Virus record (IMG/VR): IMGVR_UViG_2778261505_000002
Length of the DNA stretch: 64,000 nucleotides
Direction: 5' to 3' (one strand)
Source: a virus
Taxonomy: Duplodnaviria > Heunggongvirae > Uroviricota > Caudoviricetes
Of the stretch, positions 17,715 to 64,000 are shown piece after piece. Below the pieces are notes generated by a model that saw only the letters and a program-made list of their open reading frames with translations, searched no databases and was not told the origin of the DNA. Positions within the stretch are counted from its first letter, which is position 1; every line of letters starts with the position of its first letter. Made by a program: the position numbers and the translations under genes.

Positions 17715-20700
17715 CTTCTCACTTGGGGAGTCGGCTCTAAAAGCAGAAAACGCGGTGAAGATTGCCAGAGAAGCTGGCTACACCGCTGTAATTTCAGCAG
17801 ATAGCATGAATATTGCGAGCGTTATTCCACTACAACGTGCCGCTGGTGACGACATGGCGGTTATTTGTGGTGTGAAACTAAACATTGTTGATGATCCCAC
17901 ATACGAGCACCGGGCTAAACTTGCTAAAGAATCTATGAGATGTATGGAATCATTAGAGCGAGGACGTAACTACTCGTTTACCGCTCTAATTAAAAATGAG
18001 AAAGGATATCGCGACATCTGCGAACTAATGACGGCGGCCAACACACGAGAACAGTTCTACTTTGTACCGCGTCTCTCGCTCGAACAGTTGGTTTCTACAT
18101 ATGCCAAAGGCAACATCATCCTGCTTACTTCCGACATCGGTAGCGTGTTCCAACGCAACGATTTTGCAAAAATCATAAGCACACTGATTACAGCGGGTGG
18201 AAAAGACAACTTCTATAGTGTGGTTTATCCGCACCCTACCCCATTCTACGACCAGATTAACGTCCGGGCGATGAAAGTCGCCAGCGCATTGAAAATAGAG
18301 CCAGTGGCGTTCTATCCCGCTTATTACGAATCGATCGACGATGCAGACATTAAAGACATTGCGCACATGGTTACGAACAACATCAAAATCGACCAGCCGC
18401 ATCGTCTGCGTATCCCCCACCAGCGAGATAACGCCGTCAATGGTCGCCGCCATCTCCTTGAGGCGCTTAAAGCCTTCTCCGTTCGCATGGATGTGCCGGT
18501 AACAGCTGCAATGGCCTCAACAACGCAGGATACCATTATCGATGCCTGCACATGGCGCTGGCATGAATTGCCGCCAGCACTGCCAAAGATGGCAGACGAC
18601 GAGCCTGCAACGCTGATGAAACTGGCTGTTGCAGGGCTGCGTAAACGTCTTACCACAAAAGAGTTTGGATACACACCACCTGCTTCTGAGAACAGGGTTT
18701 ATGTTGAGCGGCTAAAGTACGAAATGGACACGCTGACTCGCCTGGGATTCTGTGGTTACTTCCTGATGGTACGCGATCTGATGAATCACAGCCGTGAAAC
18801 TGGCATTCCTGTCGGGCCTGGTCGTGGTTCCTCCGCTGGATCTCTGGTGGCATGGTGCATAGGCATAACCAACGTCGACCCAATCCGTCACGGTCTTCTG
18901 TTTGAGCGTTTCATCAACCCTGAGCGTCTCGACTTGCCAGATGCGGATTTGGACTTCAGCCAGGCACGTCGCCATGAGGTGATCGAGTATCTGAATGAAC
19001 GATACGGCGAAGATTACGTTGCAGGTATTCCTAACTTCACATATCTGGGCGCAGCCTCTGCACTACGTGACACCGCTCGTATTTATGGTGTGGAGTCCGC
19101 AGATATGGCGGTATCAAAAGAGCTGAGGAACGTCGAGGATGATAGCCTTCCATTGGAAGAGCTGCGCGAACAACTGGCAAGTCTCGACAAATACGCGACA
19201 AAATACCCTGATGCATTCAATGCAGCCTGCAAGTTACAAAGCCTTATGCGTGGCTTTGGTAGACATGCGGCAGGGATGATTGTAGCAGGTGTTCCTCTGA
19301 CAGAACGTACACCGGTTGAACGACGTGGTGACGCGCGTTGTATCGCATTTGACAAGCGTTACTGCGAGGCTATGGGCCTAATTAAGCTGGACGTGCTTGG
19401 CCTGGCAACTCTCGATTTGCTCGATAGTGCAAAACGCTACATAAAAGAGAACACAGGTGAAGATATCAATCTTGATGCCATTTCTCTTGAAGATCGCAAG
19501 GTGCTGGATGGTTTTGCTGCTGGGTACACTCAAGGTGTTTTCCAGCTTGAATCAGGCCCAATGCGCAAGCTGCTTAAAGATTTAGGTGGTGGAATTGAGC
19601 CAATGAGCTTTAAAACGGTCGTTGCTACGACTGCGCTCTTCCGGCCGGGGCCAATTCAGTCAGGCATGTTGGATGATTATGTTTCTGTCGCCAAAGGCTT
19701 TATGACGCCGGAATCATTACACCCCGTTCTTGATGAACTTACCGCAGAAACAAATGGCGTGATTCTTTATCAGGAACAGACGATGAACGCGACTCGATTG
19801 CTTGCTGGCTTCACAATGGCTGAAGCTGACGGCGTTCGTAAAGCGATCGGCAAAAAAGACATGGAGAAAATGAAGAGCATGGGTGAGAAGTTCATCGTTC
19901 AGGCTCAAGCTGGCTGGATAGACGTTGAGCTGGAAGATGGCACTACACAGCGCATTCACCGTGCGGAACATTTTAAATGCGAAGACGGAACACTGAAAAC
20001 TGTCGAAGAGGCACTTGAGTACGGCGCAAAACTACCTATAAACGCAGTACGCGTTACAGCGTCACATCCAGGGCTATCAGAGATGAAAGCGAAGGAGATC
20101 TGGACCGCATTCGAAAAGAATGGTGCCTACCAGTTCAACAAATCACACTCTGTTGCTTACTCCTTAATCAGTTATCAATCTATGTGGTTGAAAACTCATT
20201 ATCCCGCAGAGTTTTTCGCTGCTGCTCTCACTATTCTTGGCGAAGATAAACACCAGGGGCTGGTTAAAGATGCGCTGACCTATGGTATTCGCGTATTGCC
20301 ACCAGACGTTAACGTGTCATCTAACCGAATCGAGATCCGCACGCTTGAAGATGGCAGCCAGGTGCTGTATGCGCCCTTCTCTGCTGTGAAAGGGTGTTCT
20401 GAGAATGGCTGCCAAGCCATCATGAGAGCGCGAGAAAAAGTTGGCGGCAAATTCGAGTCACTGGCGCAATTCGAAGAAGCTGTCGAGAAACGTGCCTGTA
20501 ATAGTCGAGTGCGCGAATCACTGCAAAAAGTAGGTGCGTTTGCATCCATCGAGCCAGGTAGTCTGCCAGCAACTGATCCAGAGCGTCTCCGCGACCAGGC
20601 TGAATTGATGGGAAACCTTGTCATAGACGCAGTTAAAGCCTCACGTCCGTTTGAGATGAACCCCAAACGTTCGGCTGAAATTAACGCACTCATGACACGG

Positions 20701-21207
20701 ATGGCGGCTGAAATGGGCTTAGGTGATGAACTAATCCGCCCCAGCATTGGTATTAAGCCGAAAATCATGATCATTCTGGACAATGCGAACGGCAATGATG
20801 CTCGAACCGGTTACTTCATGGAGAACGGATACGACGACTTTAAGGCCAAGCTATTGACGGCTGGAGATTTACGCATGGGCGATCTCTATGTCACAGGCGT
20901 TTGCAAGAAGGTTAAAGACAAAGAAAAAGACTACACCAAAGACGAGATCGGCCAGTTCACCGACTTTATACGTGAAGAGATCAATCTGGTGCGTCCGACC
21001 TATGTGCTGACGTGTGGCAGCCGGGCAACGGCATTGTTTAACAACAAAAACAAGCCATCCGATTTGGTCGGCAGGAAGGAGTATCTTCCAGACCTTGACG
21101 TTACTGTCTTTTACGGGTTTAACCCCAACATTCTTTACTTCAGACCTGAAGAGGGAGAACGACTAGAAGCGATATTAGCCGACGTAGCAGAAACTATTAA
21201 GACGTGA
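17689..21207 (+). CDS. DnaE-like DNA polymerase III alpha-type polymerase with degenerate PHP domain and C-terminal UDG-superfamily-like domain
   Basis: 1172 aa; core GPGRGSSAGSLVAWCIGITNVDP...LLFERFINPERLDLPDADLDFS and FNKSHSVAYSLISYQSMWLKTHYPAEF match DnaE; N-terminal metal-binding His replaced (MVRTDFS); C-terminus LYVTGVCK...LVRPTYVLTCG resembles family-4 UDG fold. Confidence 0.85.
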   Translation: MKALMVRTDFSLGESALKAENAVKIAREAGYTAVISADSMNIASVIPLQRAAGDDMAVICGVKLNIVDDPTYEHRAKLAKESMRCMESLERGRNYSFTALIKNEKGYRDICELMTAANTREQFYFVPRLSLEQLVSTYAKGNIILLTSDIGSVFQRNDFAKIISTLITAGGKDNFYSVVYPHPTPFYDQINVRAMKVASALKIEPVAFYPAYYESIDDADIKDIAHMVTNNIKIDQPHRLRIPHQRDNAVNGRRHLLEALKAFSVRMDVPVTAAMASTTQDTIIDACTWRWHELPPALPKMADDEPATLMKLAVAGLRKRLTTKEFGYTPPASENRVYVERLKYEMDTLTRLGFCGYFLMVRDLMNHSRETGIPVGPGRGSSAGSLVAWCIGITNVDPIRHGLLFERFINPERLDLPDADLDFSQARRHEVIEYLNERYGEDYVAGIPNFTYLGAASALRDTARIYGVESADMAVSKELRNVEDDSLPLEELREQLASLDKYATKYPDAFNAACKLQSLMRGFGRHAAGMIVAGVPLTERTPVERRGDARCIAFDKRYCEAMGLIKLDVLGLATLDLLDSAKRYIKENTGEDINLDAISLEDRKVLDGFAAGYTQGVFQLESGPMRKLLKDLGGGIEPMSFKTVVATTALFRPGPIQSGMLDDYVSVAKGFMTPESLHPVLDELTAETNGVILYQEQTMNATRLLAGFTMAEADGVRKAIGKKDMEKMKSMGEKFIVQAQAGWIDVELEDGTTQRIHRAEHFKCEDGTLKTVEEALEYGAKLPINAVRVTASHPGLSEMKAKEIWTAFEKNGAYQFNKSHSVAYSLISYQSMWLKTHYPAEFFAAALTILGEDKHQGLVKDALTYGIRVLPPDVNVSSNRIEIRTLEDGSQVLYAPFSAVKGCSENGCQAIMRAREKVGGKFESLAQFEEAVEKRACNSRVRESLQKVGAFASIEPGSLPATDPERLRDQAELMGNLVIDAVKASRPFEMNPKRSAEINALMTRMAAEMGLGDELIRPSIGIKPKIMIILDNANGNDARTGYFMENGYDDFKAKLLTAGDLRMGDLYVTGVCKKVKDKEKDYTKDEIGQFTDFIREEINLVRPTYVLTCGSRATALFNNKNKPSDLVGRKEYLPDLDVTVFYGFNPNILYFRPEEGERLEAILADVAETIKT

Positions 21208-24183: not shown

Positions 24184-25257
24184 ATGGCAAAAGGAAAATC
24201 CGCACTGGCACTTGCTCTGAAAAAGAAAATCGGTAGCAACGACGAAATTCAGAAAGTAACTCATTGGATTGATACAGGCTTTCCACCGTTAAACAAAGCT
24301 ATTTCTGGTCGTTACGATGGCGGCTTCCCATGTGGTCGTATCGTCGAAGTATTCGGTCCTCCAAGTGCAGGGAAAACGTTCCTTGCAACAGCAGCGATGA
24401 TCTCCGCTCAAAAACAAGATGGTCTGGCGGTATTCCTCGATCATGAAAACAGTTTTGACGTTGGCCTGGCTGTCGCCAATGGCCTGAACGCAGATGAGGA
24501 TGACGGTCAGTGGGTATACAAGCAGCCTGACACCTTCGAAGACTCTGTAGAGTTGATCGGCACAATACTTAAATTGGTACGTGATGAAGAGCTTATCCCT
24601 GAATCAGCACCTATCTGTATCGTGGCTGACTCACTTGCGTCTATGGTTCCGAACTCCAAAGCCGAGAAGTTCGAAAAGATGGCTGAAGGCACTGCCAAAG
24701 ACAAAGATCAGCTAAACATGAACGACAATACGGCACTGGCTCGTGCGACAAGTGCGAACTTCCCTACTCTGGCTTTGTGGGCACGCAAATACAACGCCTG
24801 CATCATCTTCTTGAATCAGGTTCGCACAAAAATCGGTGTAATGTTTGGCGACCCTACTACGTCGCCAGGTGGAGATTCACCGAAGTTCTACGCTTCTGTA
24901 CGTATCCGTCTTGGTGCATCGGTGATGAAGGATGGTAAAGAGAAGATCGGCCAGGACGTAGGCGCAGAATGCATCAAAAACAAAGTTGCACCACCGTATG
25001 GCAAATGCACCTGGAAATTCTACTTCGATCCTACTCGTGGCCTCGACGTTATCGAATCGCTCGTCGAGTACATGCTGGAAGAAGGATACCTGCCAAAGAA
25101 CGCCAGCGGGCGAGTTGAAATTGGTGACAAGAAATACACCAAATCACAGATCGTCGAGATGTATCGGGAGAAGCCACTGGCTGAAATCATTGCGGCTTTG
25201 CAGGCAATCGACGACCGAAGAGCAAAAGACAACCCCACCGAGTCAGTAGAAGAGTAA
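24184..25257 (+). CDS. RecA/UvsX-like recombinase
   Basis: 357 aa; Walker A GPPSAGKTFLA in a RecA-fold core, Walker B-like CIVADSLAS. Confidence 0.85.
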   Translation: MAKGKSALALALKKKIGSNDEIQKVTHWIDTGFPPLNKAISGRYDGGFPCGRIVEVFGPPSAGKTFLATAAMISAQKQDGLAVFLDHENSFDVGLAVANGLNADEDDGQWVYKQPDTFEDSVELIGTILKLVRDEELIPESAPICIVADSLASMVPNSKAEKFEKMAEGTAKDKDQLNMNDNTALARATSANFPTLALWARKYNACIIFLNQVRTKIGVMFGDPTTSPGGDSPKFYASVRIRLGASVMKDGKEKIGQDVGAECIKNKVAPPYGKCTWKFYFDPTRGLDVIESLVEYMLEEGYLPKNASGRVEIGDKKYTKSQIVEMYREKPLAEIIAALQAIDDRRAKDNPTESVEE

Positions 25258-58432: not shown

Positions 58433-58959
58433 AATTTTCCAAATTTTCTGAGTTGGTGAATCGTATTTTGTCCAACAACCACAGCCATCGTCGAGATATG
58501 GATGTAACGATCGTTGTTCATTCGCCTGGTCGCATCGGTTCAACACCATCAGTTGAGGTTCAGTCAATTAAGGCGGGTTTTGATTGGGATGCCGGGCAAG
58601 TGATGATTTTTCCATCACAGCCACTGACCACGCTAACACCAGAGCAGGTTGCTGATATCACTGATAGTGTGCGCAAAGGTCAGTCTTGGCACGCGTATCA
58701 GGAATACAAGAAGCATAAAGAGCAGTTGGAAAAATTGTCGATGGAGTTGGAAGCCGCTAAACAGCGGGAAAAAGATCTGTTTATGGAAAATGTTCGACTT
58801 AAGTCAGGTATAGCCGGTCTGATACACCTCGGTATTCGATATGCGGATGTTGAGGTCATGAAAATTGCTGGAGATGCCCAGCTTTCTACTCCATGCACTG
58901 ACAGCATCATAAACAGCATTGCAGCAGGCATTTTAACCAAAGAGGGGTCAGCACGATGA
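58429..58959 (+). CDS. Hypothetical protein
   Basis: 176 aa from ATG 58429 (ATGA overlap with previous stop); coiled-coil segment. Confidence 0.45.
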
Positions 58960-59141
58960 GAACACTAGAAGTTCGCGCTGAAGACGTAATCCCTGGTGAT
59001 GTGCTCATAACATCTAAAGGTCAACAATGTGCGGTTAAATCTTTTTGGATGGAAGATGACAAAGTGACTCTGTTCGGTACGGATGGTTCCGAAACTGATT
59101 ATGACTACGACGAATTGCTTGTTGTTGAGAGAGCTGCCTAA
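58956..59141 (+). CDS. Hypothetical protein
   Basis: 61-aa ORF, translationally coupled to neighbours. Confidence 0.35.
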   Translation: MRTLEVRAEDVIPGDVLITSKGQQCAVKSFWMEDDKVTLFGTDGSETDYDYDELLVVERAA

Positions 59142-59794
59142 TGACCACCGTTAACAATAAGAAATGCTACCCAAGCGAGAAATATCTTAATGAGCTGATC
59201 GCCAACATTGAGTTTGCTGCAAGGGCACCAGTTGAAGTCGTGAGAGCGATTGCAGCAGAGCTACAGAAGCACCGTAAGGCCTATGCCAATACAGCCGCAT
59301 CTAAGGATGGTTGGATAAGCTGTAGTGAGCGAATGCCTGTAATTGGCGAGCTAAATTGGAGAACTAGTTTTCCTTTACTGGTTACGTGTGAGATCGGCGT
59401 TATACCTGCTTATTACGGCTTTGTGAGCGTTAATGGTGATAGGCATTATGGCTTTATGGAGAGTCTTAAATACGGAGACGATAACGGCAACCATCCTCAA
59501 ACTAATGAATATGGTCTGATTAGCAATGTCACACACTGGATGCCACTACCAGAACGCCGCAGGAGTCGAACAGTGAATAAAGCAGAGTTATTTCAGAAAA
59601 TATCGGCTCTCGCGACTGAATGCCACGCTATAGCATCTGAGCTTGATGTTGGCGATGAACGAACCGAGATGTTCGAAATATACAGTGTGCTGCGCAATCT
59701 CTGTCGGCGTGGCTACGCCACTCAAGTAGGGCGAATGACTAACCCACTACTCTCATCCTGTGATGAGGATGACTCGGATGAGGATGACGAATGA
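59141..59794 (+). CDS. DUF551-like phage protein
   Basis: 217 aa; HWMPLPE motif typical of DUF551 as I recall; acidic C-terminal tail. Confidence 0.45.
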   Translation: MTTVNNKKCYPSEKYLNELIANIEFAARAPVEVVRAIAAELQKHRKAYANTAASKDGWISCSERMPVIGELNWRTSFPLLVTCEIGVIPAYYGFVSVNGDRHYGFMESLKYGDDNGNHPQTNEYGLISNVTHWMPLPERRRSRTVNKAELFQKISALATECHAIASELDVGDERTEMFEIYSVLRNLCRRGYATQVGRMTNPLLSSCDEDDSDEDDE

Positions 59795-60462
59795 TGCATA
59801 AATCAGTAGCCGGTGAGCTTCAGAAGGAAGTCGATAATACTACCGTTCTATTGGACGATATTTTAAGCATTCTCGCGCTGCTTGAGGCTGGCGATTGGTC
59901 AGAACATTGCACTAAAACAGAGCTAGGCGGTCGGCTTGAAAGAGAGATTACACGACTTATTGGTGATGCGCAGGAAGCTACAGTCACTAGTTATGAGTTA
60001 ATCGCTGAAGCCTGGCGTTTGATGGATGGACAAGATCCTAAAACCAGCGATTGGCATAGCAAGGCTTCGAAGTATTTAAATTCCAATAGGGTAGAAAAAG
60101 TTGATGATGTGAAACCGAAGCCAGTAGACCACGGTTTCCGCGATAACTGCGAATGCTCTAGTTGCCAGACCACGGCCCGTATTTGTTCCGAATTGATAGA
60201 TAAGTCCAGCCTAATCTACGAAGTTAATGTAGGCGGTAATACATGGGTCGAATGCACAAGAGCTGCATACGTAAGAGCAAAAGACAAGGGTGAATTAACC
60301 AGAGTTGTTACCCATCACCCAAATAATGAGCTTAAAGATCACCAGATTAGAGAACTGGTGAACGAGTTGCGGGATATTGCGGTTCAGTACCACGGAGCGC
60401 AGCAATTGCGGGAGAAAATTGCCAGAGCAGTGAACAACTCAATTAGATCAGAAAGTATGTAG
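59791..60462 (+). CDS. Hypothetical protein
   Basis: 223-aa ORF; Cys cluster CECSSC; last + strand gene of the element in this window. Confidence 0.45.
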   Translation: MMHKSVAGELQKEVDNTTVLLDDILSILALLEAGDWSEHCTKTELGGRLEREITRLIGDAQEATVTSYELIAEAWRLMDGQDPKTSDWHSKASKYLNSNRVEKVDDVKPKPVDHGFRDNCECSSCQTTARICSELIDKSSLIYEVNVGGNTWVECTRAAYVRAKDKGELTRVVTHHPNNELKDHQIRELVNELRDIAVQYHGAQQLREKIARAVNNSIRSESM

Positions 60463-61220
60463 TCAATACAATAAAATGGCCCCATTTGGATGGGGCCGGT
60501 AACAACTAGCATTATGGGCGCTGGTTGACGTACTCAATGATCGCTTCGATGATTGCGAACATAGGCGGCACGATTTTGAAAAGTAAGTTAAGCACTATAG
60601 GCCTCACTTAGTTTTATCGCACCTAGCTGCAAATACCTTTGAGCTTGCCTTTGCAGTTGCAATATCTGTAGTCGCCAGATACTTACGGCACGATTTCGAG
60701 TTAAGGTAAGGTTTTAGAGTCACCAAAAACCTGGACTTAAATCTTCTTTGAGAACAACGATGTTTGGTAAATGGTCATTATTACCTAGCATGACGGCTCA
60801 ACGTTTCTTGATGAATCCAGTACATTCGGTTAATCTTAGCTCAGTCGCCAGATACTTATGGCTCAGGAACAGAGCCGCAAACTCTGTTTCCTTTTAAAAA
60901 GCCCAGCCTAGTCAACTGGGCTTTTTAATGTCTATTTTTAACCCAACATACCCTCAATACTGCAACATCAGTGTCTTGCGAATTAAGATAGTGTGAATAG
61001 ATTTTTCATGCAAGTGCATAAGCCTGTGGATAACTCAGGAAGGAAAAAGTGACTTCTGCGCACTTTAGACCGGACAAGGCGTTCGAAAAAGTCAATGGGA
61101 AGAAAAAATTTGTTAAAAATAACGTTTGTTTGAATTGTATATATTTATGCCTTTCAATAGTTAGCATCTTATTAACATCTTTTTTAAGAGATAGAGTTCA
61201 AAAATATATAGCTTCAATAT

Positions 61221-61241
61221 ACACTGTATGTGTATACAGTA
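61221..61241. promoter_or_regulatory. LexA (SOS) box
   Basis: TACACTGTATGTGTATACAGTA fits CTGT-N8-ACAG; 17 bp upstream of the UmuD'-like start codon. Confidence 0.65.
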
Positions 61242-61257
61242 TTAAGAGGCGAGTATT

Positions 61258-61647
61258 ATGGGCTTCCCTTCTCCTGCGGCGGATTATGCTGAGAGCCGTA
61301 TTTCTCTTGATCAGCAGATAATTAGACATCCTTCAGCGACCTACTTCATGAGGGCAGCTGATAGTCATCATCGTGAGGGAATATTACAGGGTGCATTGCT
61401 GGTGGTCGATTCCTCACTTACCCCGGTTGATGGTTCTCTGCTTGTATGCGCTCTGGATGGGGAATATCGCGTAAAAAGATACCGGAAGTACCCACGTCAG
61501 CATCTGGAGGATTTAAGAACCGGTAAGAAGGAAGCATTGCCAAAGGATGACGATGGATGCACGGGCAGCAATGCCGTGTTTGGTGTGATCACTCACATTA
61601 TCAACGACGCAAGAAGTGGCGAGTTTGATGATTGTCCCGTGATGTAG
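61258..61647 (+). CDS. UmuD'-like protein (S24 peptidase family, natively lacking the UmuD N-terminal pro-segment)
   Basis: 129 aa; begins MGFPSPAADYAE, aligning with UmuD from the post-cleavage Gly onward; GAGG RBS; no umuC-like gene downstream. Confidence 0.7.
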   Translation: MGFPSPAADYAESRISLDQQIIRHPSATYFMRAADSHHREGILQGALLVVDSSLTPVDGSLLVCALDGEYRVKRYRKYPRQHLEDLRTGKKEALPKDDDGCTGSNAVFGVITHIINDARSGEFDDCPVM

Positions 61648-61659
61648 GAGAACTGATTA

Positions 61660-61683
61660 GGCGGTGCAATGCACCGCCTTTTT
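61660..61683. terminator. Hairpin terminator between convergent UmuD'-like and apbC genes
   Basis: GGCGGTGC-AAT-GCACCGCC followed by TTTTT. Confidence 0.6.
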
Positions 61684-61684
61684 A

Positions 61685-62785
61685 TCACACTGCGCGGAAT
61701 GCGATTTCGCCAGGTATTACTTCACCTTGCCAATACATTTGGGCAGCAACGCGATCTGCGAGGTCACGATAAATAGCTGTAAATTCGCTATCTGGACGAC
61801 TAATAACGGTTGGTGTTCCGTTATCCAGATCTTCACGAAGAGAGATATGAAGTGGCATTTGGCCTAACAACTGCGTGTTGTATTTCTCGGCCAGTTTCTG
61901 TGCGCCACCGGTGCCAAAAATTGGCTCGTGATGACCGCAGTTACTGCAAATATGCACACTCATGTTTTCAACGATACCCAGTACCGGCACTTCGACTTTT
62001 TCGAACATCACAATGCCTTTCTTCGCATCGATCAGCGCGATGTCTTGCGGCGTAGTTACCACAACCGCACCAGTTACAGGAATGTTCTGCGCCAGCGTCA
62101 ACTGAATATCACCAGTGCCCGGCGGCATATCGAGAACAAGATAGTCCAGATCAGGCCACAATGTTTCCTGCAACATCTGCATCAGCGCCTTGCTGGCCAT
62201 CGGTCCACGCCACACCATTGCATTGTCGTCGGTGACCAGATAACCAATAGAGTTGGTTGCCAGGCCATGAGACATGATAGGTGCCATGTGAGTACCGTCA
62301 GGTGAGGTTGGACGTTGGTTTTCCGCGCCCAGCATGGTTGGAATTGATGGACCATAGATATCGGCATCCAAAATACCAACTTTCGCACCTTCAGCAGCCA
62401 ACGCCAGTGCCAGGTTTACCGCCGTGGAGGATTTACCCACGCCGCCCTTGCCTGAGCTGACGGCGATAATGTTCTTAACGCCATTAATGCCTGGTTGGTT
62501 TTTGACGCGCTTAAGCGTGGCAATGTTGTACGACAGCTTCCAGTCAATAGCCTTTGCGCCAGTGATACGGAGCAGATCACCACTACATTGCTCTTTCAGG
62601 TCTTCAAAAGGCTTATTCCACACGAAAGGCATGATTAGTTCGACATGCAGTGTGTCATCCATCAACGCAACATGGTGTAACGCTTTAAGCGTAGTCAGGT
62701 TGTGTTTCAGGGTTGGGTGCTGAAAATTAGCCAGCGTACCGGCTACCATTGCTCTCAGGGCATCCGGCGATTTGGACTCGCTCAT
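61685..62785 (-). CDS. apbC: Fe-S cluster carrier ATPase ApbC/Mrp
   Basis: 366 aa; near-identical to enterobacterial Mrp/ApbC as I recall it (P-loop SGKGGVGKSS, CxxC); divergent from metG as in enterobacterial chromosomes. Confidence 0.9.
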   Translation of the reverse strand: MSESKSPDALRAMVAGTLANFQHPTLKHNLTTLKALHHVALMDDTLHVELIMPFVWNKPFEDLKEQCSGDLLRITGAKAIDWKLSYNIATLKRVKNQPGINGVKNIIAVSSGKGGVGKSSTAVNLALALAAEGAKVGILDADIYGPSIPTMLGAENQRPTSPDGTHMAPIMSHGLATNSIGYLVTDDNAMVWRGPMASKALMQMLQETLWPDLDYLVLDMPPGTGDIQLTLAQNIPVTGAVVVTTPQDIALIDAKKGIVMFEKVEVPVLGIVENMSVHICSNCGHHEPIFGTGGAQKLAEKYNTQLLGQMPLHISLREDLDNGTPTVISRPDSEFTAIYRDLADRVAAQMYWQGEVIPGEIAFRAV

Positions 62786-62942
62786 CCCGTCTCCTTTATT
62801 TTAATTTGCGCAATTGTCGCCTTGTAGTGTACTCCAGCTACGACATTTAATCATTTATGAGAAATGCTGTTATCACATGGCAGACATAAGGCCATTTTGT
62901 TACTATCAAGCCCCTTTTCACTACAAAGAAGTAATGCCTACT

Positions 62943-64000
62943 ATGACCCAAGTCGCGAAGAAAATTCTGGTGACGTGCGCGCTGCCGTACGCTAACGGCT
63001 CAATCCACCTCGGCCATATGCTGGAGCACATCCAGGCTGATGTCTGGGTTCGTTACCAGCGAATGCGCGGCCACGAGGTTAATTTCATCTGTGCCGACGA
63101 TGCCCACGGTACGCCAATCATGCTGAAAGCACAGCAGCTTGGTATCACACCGGAACAGATGATTGGCGAAATGAGTCAGGAACATCAGACTGATTTCGCA
63201 GGCTTTAACATCAGCTATGACAACTATCACTCGACGCACAGCGAAGAGAACCGTCAGTTGTCCGAGCTTATCTATACTCGCCTGAAAGAGAACGGTTTTA
63301 TTAAAAACCGCACCATCTCTCAGCTGTACGACCCGGAAAAAGGCATGTTCCTGCCGGACCGTTTTGTAAAAGGTACATGCCCGAAATGTAAAGCGCCGGA
63401 TCAATACGGCGATAACTGTGAAGTCTGCGGCGCGACATACAGCCCGACGGAACTGATCGAGCCGAAATCAGTGGTTTCTGGCGCTACACCGGTAATGCGT
63501 GATTCCGAACACTTCTTCTTTGATCTGCCTTCTTTCAGCGAAATGTTGCAGGCATGGACCCGCAGCGGTGCGTTGCAGGAGCAGGTGGCAAACAAAATGC
63601 AGGAGTGGTTTGAATCTGGCCTGCAACAGTGGGATATCTCCCGTGACGCACCTTACTTCGGTTTTGAAATCCCGAACGCACCGGGCAAATACTTCTACGT
63701 CTGGCTGGACGCGCCGATTGGCTACATGGGTTCTTTCAAGAATCTGTGCGACAAACGCGGCGACACTACCAGCTTCGACGAATACTGGAAGAAAGACTCC
63801 ACCGCCGAGCTGTACCACTTCATCGGCAAAGATATCGTTTACTTCCACAGCCTGTTCTGGCCTGCCATGCTGGAAGGCAGCAACTTCCGCAAGCCGACCA
63901 ACCTGTTTGTTCACGGCTATGTGACGGTGAACGGCGCGAAGATGTCCAAGTCTCGCGGCACCTTTATTAAAGCCAGCACCTGGCTGAATCATTTTGACGC
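62943..64000 (+). CDS. metG: Methionyl-tRNA synthetase, 5' partial (runs off window end)
   Basis: Translation from ATG 62943 gives [29 protein letters not shown] with HLGH motif and zinc knuckle CPKC...CEVCG; open to window end; absent from the ORF track because it has no stop. Confidence 0.9.

Follow-up and report, generated by a model that had tools for sequence, protein, structure and literature searches.

We find that the gene at positions 61258-61647 of the window, the stretch of 64,000 nucleotides analyzed here, is very probably a functional humD of the P1 family, an accessory gene under SOS control on an SSU5-like phage-plasmid of Escherichia coli. The integrity of the gene, its membership of the HumD family, its truncated start, the LexA box ahead of it, and the absence of umuC were each established by computation in this work. 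Gene and element type are both already known: this humD is one more copy of a gene characterized in 1999, and the RefSeq annotation of near-identical plasmids already uses the name 'HumD family translesion DNA polymerase'.

The humD reading frame and its family

The locus comprises the following features, in window coordinates:

61197-61225, plus strand: candidate sigma-70 promoter, TTCAAA-17 nt-TACACT
61222-61241: LexA (SOS) box, CACTGTATGTGTATACAGTA, ending 16 nt before the humD ATG
61244-61249, plus strand: Shine-Dalgarno sequence AAGAGG, 8 nt before the ATG, read from the sequence
61258-61647, plus strand: humD ORF, stop codon included, ATG start, 129 aa, MGFPSPAADY...
61659-61686, plus strand: terminator-like hairpin with TTTTTAT, 12 nt past the humD stop (61659-61679 when given as the hairpin with its T run)
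61685-62785, minus strand: apbC, convergent with humD; NF008669, 759 bits against a cutoff of 348
62943 to beyond the window end (64000), plus strand: metG, divergent from apbC

The ORF opens with MGFPSPAADY, as a preliminary description of this DNA had said in calling it a pre-truncated UmuD' homolog, and the alignment with solved protein chains bears this out: Gly2 of the query aligns with Gly25 of UmuD (8gmt_B), the first residue of UmuD'. The start coordinate given there, 61221, lies 1 nt ahead of the LexA box and is not the start of the ORF. Translated in frame, the upstream sequence reads ...IQY*EASIM: a TAA occupies 61243-61245, the ATG follows five codons later, and no ATG, GTG, or TTG stands between the two. 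Because no start codon intervenes after this in-frame stop, a longer, cleavable UmuD cannot arise from the humD frame, and translation from an upstream non-ATG codon to give a full-length UmuD, an objection that the preliminary description had itself raised, is excluded.

The candidate promoter is a weak consensus match from a relaxed scan (8 of 12 positions), and its -10 hexamer runs into the left arm of the LexA box; a stricter standard promoter scan returned no plus-strand sigma-70 promoter upstream of humD. The hairpin past the gene has 9 pairs, 7 of them G-C, resembles an intrinsic terminator, and lies outside the stretch homologous to E. coli K-12, which begins at 61689. An Rfam scan of the window at gathering thresholds gave nothing near humD, its sole hits being three tRNAs at 10447-10690.

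The product is a true member of the HumD family. Its score on NF051876 ('HumD family translesion DNA polymerase'), the curated HumD equivalog of NCBIfam, is 219.8 bits, where the cutoff is 120, and the match is full-length, with residues 1-129 falling on positions 1-129 of the 129 in the profile. The product also matches Pfam PF00717, Peptidase_S24 (37.9 bits against a gathering threshold of 23.3), and, in PHROGs, the UmuD-like protein phrog_811 (183.5 bits). By tblastn against phage genomes, the protein is 100% identical to CYRAN_98 of Escherichia phage Cyrano and 98-99% identical to its counterparts in two other ~108 kb E. coli phages; identity is 91.5-93% to HumD of P1, P7, RCS47, SJ46, and D6, and 60-71% to the UmuD-like proteins of phiKO2, N15, HK140, HK639, and BTP1. 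The genes of this last group (N15 gp26, phiKO2 gp23, and those of HK140, HK639, and the P22-like BTP1) are likewise stand-alone HumD-type genes of temperate phages or phage-plasmids, and differ in being more distant alleles set in other genomic modules.

Two other assignments were considered and rejected. UmuD proper (NF007621) scored 87 bits against a cutoff of 110, and the locus has neither an N-terminal arm nor a umuC; the LexA repressor (TIGR00498) scored 27.2 bits against 110.95, the match being confined to the C-terminal S24 region, profile positions 91-166.

The likeness to P1 HumD that the preliminary description had drawn is borne out by the comparison with that protein (AAQ14073.1): both are 129 aa long, share 118 of 129 residues, start at Met-Gly25, and end in the same C-terminal tail. 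The two genes are 85.5% identical in DNA and 91.5% in protein, with a dN/dS of 0.05, which indicates strong purifying selection and a gene that is no decaying fragment. Homologs of HumD fall into 561 clusters at 90% identity in a large protein database, and 103 of the 120 cluster representatives listed measure 126-130 aa. The few longer entries that were checked carry unrelated N-terminal extensions before an internal M-GFPSP and resemble mis-called starts.

Among solved chains, the best matches were UmuD' (1umu, E = 7e-23) and the full-length UmuD in 8gmt, and it is on such matches that the S24 fold is assigned to HumD. Identity to E. coli UmuD/UmuD' (1UMU, 1I4V, 8GMT) is 44%. Ser36 and Lys73 of the window protein align with the UmuD dyad Ser60/Lys97, and the loss of this dyad, which the preliminary description had held out as evidence against its reading, is not seen in this protein. 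Across 100 aligned family members, the catalytic serine position is S in 56, T in 42, and A in 2, the lysine is kept in 99, and the GDSM motif of UmuD and LexA is lost; the window protein has ADSH in its place. A nucleophile relaxed to Ser or Thr fits a protein with no further need of self-cleavage, and the protease activity of HumD is probably not under selection.

Unlike UmuD, the window protein lacks the cleavable N-terminal arm and carries an extra conserved C-terminal tail of ~11 residues. This tail, ...NDARSGEFDDCPVM, which includes GEFDDCPVM and occupies residues 116-129, is nearly invariant in the 100 aligned members, and GEFDDCPVM is missing from UmuD. The model that AlphaFold2 built from the family alignment of 100 sequences was unusable (mean pLDDT 45.7, pTM 0.36), probably because all rows of the alignment share at least 67% identity.

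The LexA box and the missing umuC

The box at 61222-61241, CACTGTATGTGTATACAGTA, departs from the consensus TACTGTATATATATACAGTA at three positions, all of them non-core, and its CTGT-N8-ACAG is intact. It is the sole match at three or fewer mismatches in the 64 kb window, and such a match occurred in 0 of 100 dinucleotide-preserving shuffles. The box is beyond chance expectation and is a predicted LexA operator, in keeping with the earlier statement that humD lies under one. A LexA-type box also stands upstream of E. coli umuD. In P1, the box again stands just before the ATG and no umuC adjoins the gene: the P1 GenBank record places the LexA binding site, common to humD and the divergent lxr, 19 nt before humD, as compared with 16 nt here. 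When the upstream regions of the two are aligned, the LexA site of the P1 record and the coding start are conserved, and the sequences diverge farther upstream.

We then looked beyond E. coli, at 39 full-length HumD-type genes (120-137 aa, MGF start, EFD[DE] tail) from a single scan of species-representative genomes. A LexA-like box lies within 100 nt of 21 of these genes, mostly at -35 to -40 from the ATG (the window box is at -36), and none lies within that distance in the other 18; SOS control is therefore not universal among HumD-type genes. PMC9603915 calls humD a LexA-regulated SOS gene. Ciprofloxacin raises the phage-plasmid Cyrano 39-fold by induction, and CYRAN_98, the humD of Cyrano, is absent from the list of genes expressed in unstressed lysogens, data that are weakly consistent with repression of humD by LexA.

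The only other LexA-like box of the window, at 11976-11995 (TACTGTTTACTTATACAGTG, 4 mismatches), also has CTGT-N8-ACAG intact. A tyrosine recombinase ORF (12022-13125) begins 26 nt downstream of this second box, which recurs in the reference plasmid described below and may tie expression of the recombinase to the SOS response in a ciprofloxacin-inducible element.

No umuC accompanies humD, as had been noted at the outset. A tblastn search of the window and the collinear reference plasmid found no UmuC-like sequence (best E = 0.9, with an E. coli UmuC query), and the PGAP annotation of that plasmid lists no Y-family polymerase. Further, of the 39 full-length HumD-type genes from other species, none had a UmuC homolog within 6 kb.

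The plasmid- and ICE-borne pol V operons mucAB, impCAB, rumAB, and samAB encode full-length cleavable UmuD homologs together with their own UmuC-type polymerase. The humD locus of the window has neither and differs from them in both respects. Like humD, these operons supply UmuD homologs that are borne on mobile elements and linked to the SOS response (PMC7092418).

Two metagenome-assembled genomes, of a Proteobacteria bacterium (locus L065) and a Chitinophagaceae bacterium (locus L066), contain distant UmuD-like ORFs that start MGFPSPA (match from 6001). These ORFs lack the HumD tail, no in-frame upstream start codon was found for them, and a UmuC homolog with 42-45% identity to E. coli UmuC follows directly. 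With their starts being predicted ones, the two loci may hold pre-truncated UmuD' genes inside umuDC-type operons.

HumD as a probable ready-made partner for host UmuC

That the window protein would replace UmuD' is carried over from the 91.5%-identical P1 protein. P1 HumD reportedly substitutes for UmuD' in SOS mutagenesis, a finding credited to McLenigan et al. in 1999. The P1 GenBank record says of HumD that it 'functionally complements E. coli UmuD'', and PMC7092418 states the functional replacement as well.

By analogy with P1, we infer LexA control through the box at 61222-61241, a partnership with host UmuC, and a benefit to the element; the host itself is outside the window, and the presence of umuC in it is assumed. 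In an undamaged cell, host LexA bound to the box, which overlaps the promoter and leader, would keep humD off. Upon DNA damage, active RecA would bring about the self-cleavage of LexA, and HumD would be made. Because it starts at the equivalent of UmuD Gly25, HumD would already have the form of UmuD' and would need no RecA-mediated cleavage, and its dimer could join host UmuC in an active translesion polymerase of the pol V type, formed earlier or in greater abundance than the host alone would supply. The outcome would be replication past lesions, those of the multicopy phage-plasmid included, and more damage-induced mutagenesis. Resistance genes such as CTX-M-15 are frequent cargo of SSU5-like and P1-like phage-plasmids, and the presence there of a pol V subunit that is pre-activated and damage-inducible could increase the supply of mutations under quinolones, although we judge this relevance to be modest.

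HumD could instead act mainly as a regulator, and not as a subunit of pol V, redirecting replication during SOS or lytic induction with the conserved acidic C-terminal tail as its interaction motif. Candidate partners would be host UmuD (as heterodimers), the beta clamp, Pol III alpha or epsilon, RecA filaments, and the DnaE-like and RecA-like proteins of the element. Such a role would suit a tail, NDARSGEFDDCPVM, that is near-invariant in the HumD family and missing from UmuD, a protease nucleophile relaxed to Ser or Thr, and an element that encodes DnaE-like (17689-21207) and RecA-like (24184-25257) proteins of its own; umuD gene products are also said, in the title of a 2012 paper by Silva et al., to disrupt the Pol III alpha-beta complex. 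We nonetheless consider a mainly regulatory role unlikely: the 91.5%-identical P1 HumD reportedly stands in for UmuD' in SOS mutagenesis, there is no evidence of any other HumD partner, and P1, N15, and lambdoid phages have HumD without a DnaE of their own, so that a role tied to element-encoded replication proteins would not be general.

The relaxed Ser/Thr nucleophile, the loss of GDSM, and the near-invariant tail do imply that the HumD family may interact with proteins, or serve functions, that UmuD' does not. Put more boldly, HumD could be more than a UmuD' without its arm, with the acidic tail GEFDDCPVM, which no UmuD/MucA-type protein has, and the Ser/Thr nucleophile marking an undescribed interaction, possibly with the DnaE-like polymerase or the RecA-like recombinase of the element. 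We rate this idea as a long shot, a shade less probable again than a regulatory role; if it is true, HumD would couple the SOS response to a switch in the replication of the element itself, instead of, or besides, arming host UmuC.

The phage-plasmid and its apbC-metG cargo

The carrier of humD can be named from its relatives. The window is collinear over 1-64000, at 97-99.9% identity, with NZ_JBSTRI010000003.1, a circular plasmid of 111,954 bp, with the exception of local insertions and deletions such as an ISEcp1-CTX-M-15 unit that is absent from the window. The annotation of this reference plasmid includes the following:

Siphovirus structural module: terminase, portal, capsid, tape measure, tail fiber
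Plasmid genes: RepB, ParB
DNA-metabolism module: dnaE, recA-like, nrdAB, thyA, dfrA51, ligase, RNase H
Also: three tRNAs, a tyrosine recombinase, and humD followed by convergent apbC and then metG

The neighborhood of humD (58759-64000) is 97% identical to phage Cyrano (pLF82), which has the same humD-apbC-metG arrangement and has been described as an SSU5-like phage-plasmid with a copy number of about 5.5 per cell. A query of 2.5 kb that covers humD and apbC found a full-length match in 98 records among 5426 complete E. coli genomes; the best 30 of these 98 are ~97-99.5% identical, and all are 72-120 kb in size, mostly ~110 kb. About 5,900 further matches at 80-90% identity are chromosomal apbC. 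By these alignments, the window belongs to a ~110 kb SSU5-like phage-plasmid of E. coli and not to the chromosome.

Several other genes of the element deserve mention. The DnaE-like polymerase encoded at 17689-21207 is 1172 aa long, and over its C-terminal ~115 residues it matches uracil-DNA glycosylase family 4 at 30 bits, a score below the cutoff; its gene is a single ORF in the window and is split by an HNH endonuclease gene in NZ_JBSTRI010000003.1. The RecA-like protein (24184-25257) is divergent, scoring 153.7 bits on TIGR02012 against a cutoff of 325. The three tRNA genes at 10447-10690 are consecutive (Rfam tRNA, 75.5, 41.6, and 74.9 bits), and the same region of the collinear plasmid is annotated with Asn, Thr, and Ser tRNAs at other spacing.

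The next gene, as previously described, is a convergent apbC. Its segment, apbC-metG, is 86.6% identical in DNA to K-12 mrp-metG, with the homology starting at 61689, 4 nt past the apbC stop; the encoded proteins are closer, at 94.8% for ApbC and 98.6% for the first 352 residues of MetG. By these comparisons, the element has captured a chromosomal apbC-metG pair, and humD and its terminator lie just outside the captured block. The phage-plasmid keeps in this way an additional Fe-S carrier and Met-tRNA ligase, and the apbC homolog of Cyrano (CYRAN_99) is listed among the genes expressed in lysogens. Because ~110 kb phage-plasmids bear an apbC-metG of their own, apbC is no marker of the chromosome. 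The possibility that it marked one, left open in the preliminary description, does not stand, given the collinearity of the window (97-99.9%) with E. coli phage-plasmids that carry apbC-metG. At the scale of the whole window, the correction is that this DNA is a phage-plasmid and apbC-metG its cargo.

We also weighed whether humD might be a chromosomal SOS gene, neighbor to the apbC of the chromosome where an integrated element ends, and find this very improbable. In its favor, homology to K-12 (86.6% in DNA) sets in 4 nt past the apbC stop, right beyond the humD terminator, and in lambdoid phages humD does adjoin attP/int. Yet both flanks of humD are collinear with circular ~110 kb plasmids and with Cyrano, apbC-metG is internal to these, and the window apbC is just 86.6% identical in DNA to the chromosomal copy. 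On the 3' side of chromosomal mrp/apbC, the place where the preliminary description had proposed to look, K-12 has yehE and not humD. Among the species representatives, no HumD-type locus had an apbC homolog within 6 kb. On these comparisons, a chromosomal location is refuted for the window.

The humD of the window resembles its P1 counterpart in having a carrier phage that persists as a plasmid. It differs in that the carrier is an SSU5-like siphovirus phage-plasmid and the 3' neighbor is the captured apbC-metG. The divergent lxr, hot, and the downstream phd-doc of P1 are missing here, and only a 105-nt stretch resembling upfN/upfO remains upstream; tblastn found no homolog of P1 Lxr divergent from the window humD (E at least 1.9).

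Among the 5426 complete E. coli genomes, 765 contain humD-like DNA, in 691 places on plasmids and 113 on chromosomes. One of the chromosomal copies lies in a lambdoid prophage, next to the integrase, at tRNA-Thr/proA (locus L008, NZ_CP190018.1), and in HK140 the humD-type gene sits between dinI and attP/int. humD is a mobile, often att-proximal, SOS-linked accessory gene of P1-like, N15-like, SSU5-like, and lambdoid elements. Since humD lies beside attP/int in lambdoid phages, the capture of apbC-metG might, speculatively, be a relic of aberrant excision.

Least credible, and effectively refuted by the conservation data, is the reading of humD as an inert leftover, the 3' portion of umuD that outlasted the decay of a umuDC operon and is pre-activated by an accident of truncation: this reading would explain why the N-terminal 24 residues and a umuC partner are missing, but P1 and many species conserve the Met-Gly25 start, the LexA box, and a Shine-Dalgarno sequence proper to the gene, the homologs form 561 clusters at 90% identity (103 of the 120 listed being 126-130 aa), dN/dS against P1 humD is 0.05, and the protein scores below the cutoff for the UmuD subfamily (87 against 110) and far above that for HumD.

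The prophage locus L008 shares more than humD with the window. Positions 6922-8549 of L008 align with window 60121-61748 at 94.8% identity, as a cassette made up of part of the upstream gene, a spacer of ~800 nt, the LexA box, humD, the terminator, and 63 nt of the apbC 3' end. By this alignment, the cassette is the footprint of an exchange of DNA between SSU5-like phage-plasmids and lambdoid prophages. The spacer that travels with humD, 60463-61221, has ~800 nt without an annotated gene and contains a terminator-like hairpin at 60905-60922. Its 105-nt stretch (around 61006-61108) is 76% identical to the upfN/upfO region of P1, which according to the P1 record resembles an E. coli region with DnaA boxes, and a perfect DnaA box, TGTGGATAA, is present at 61025-61033.
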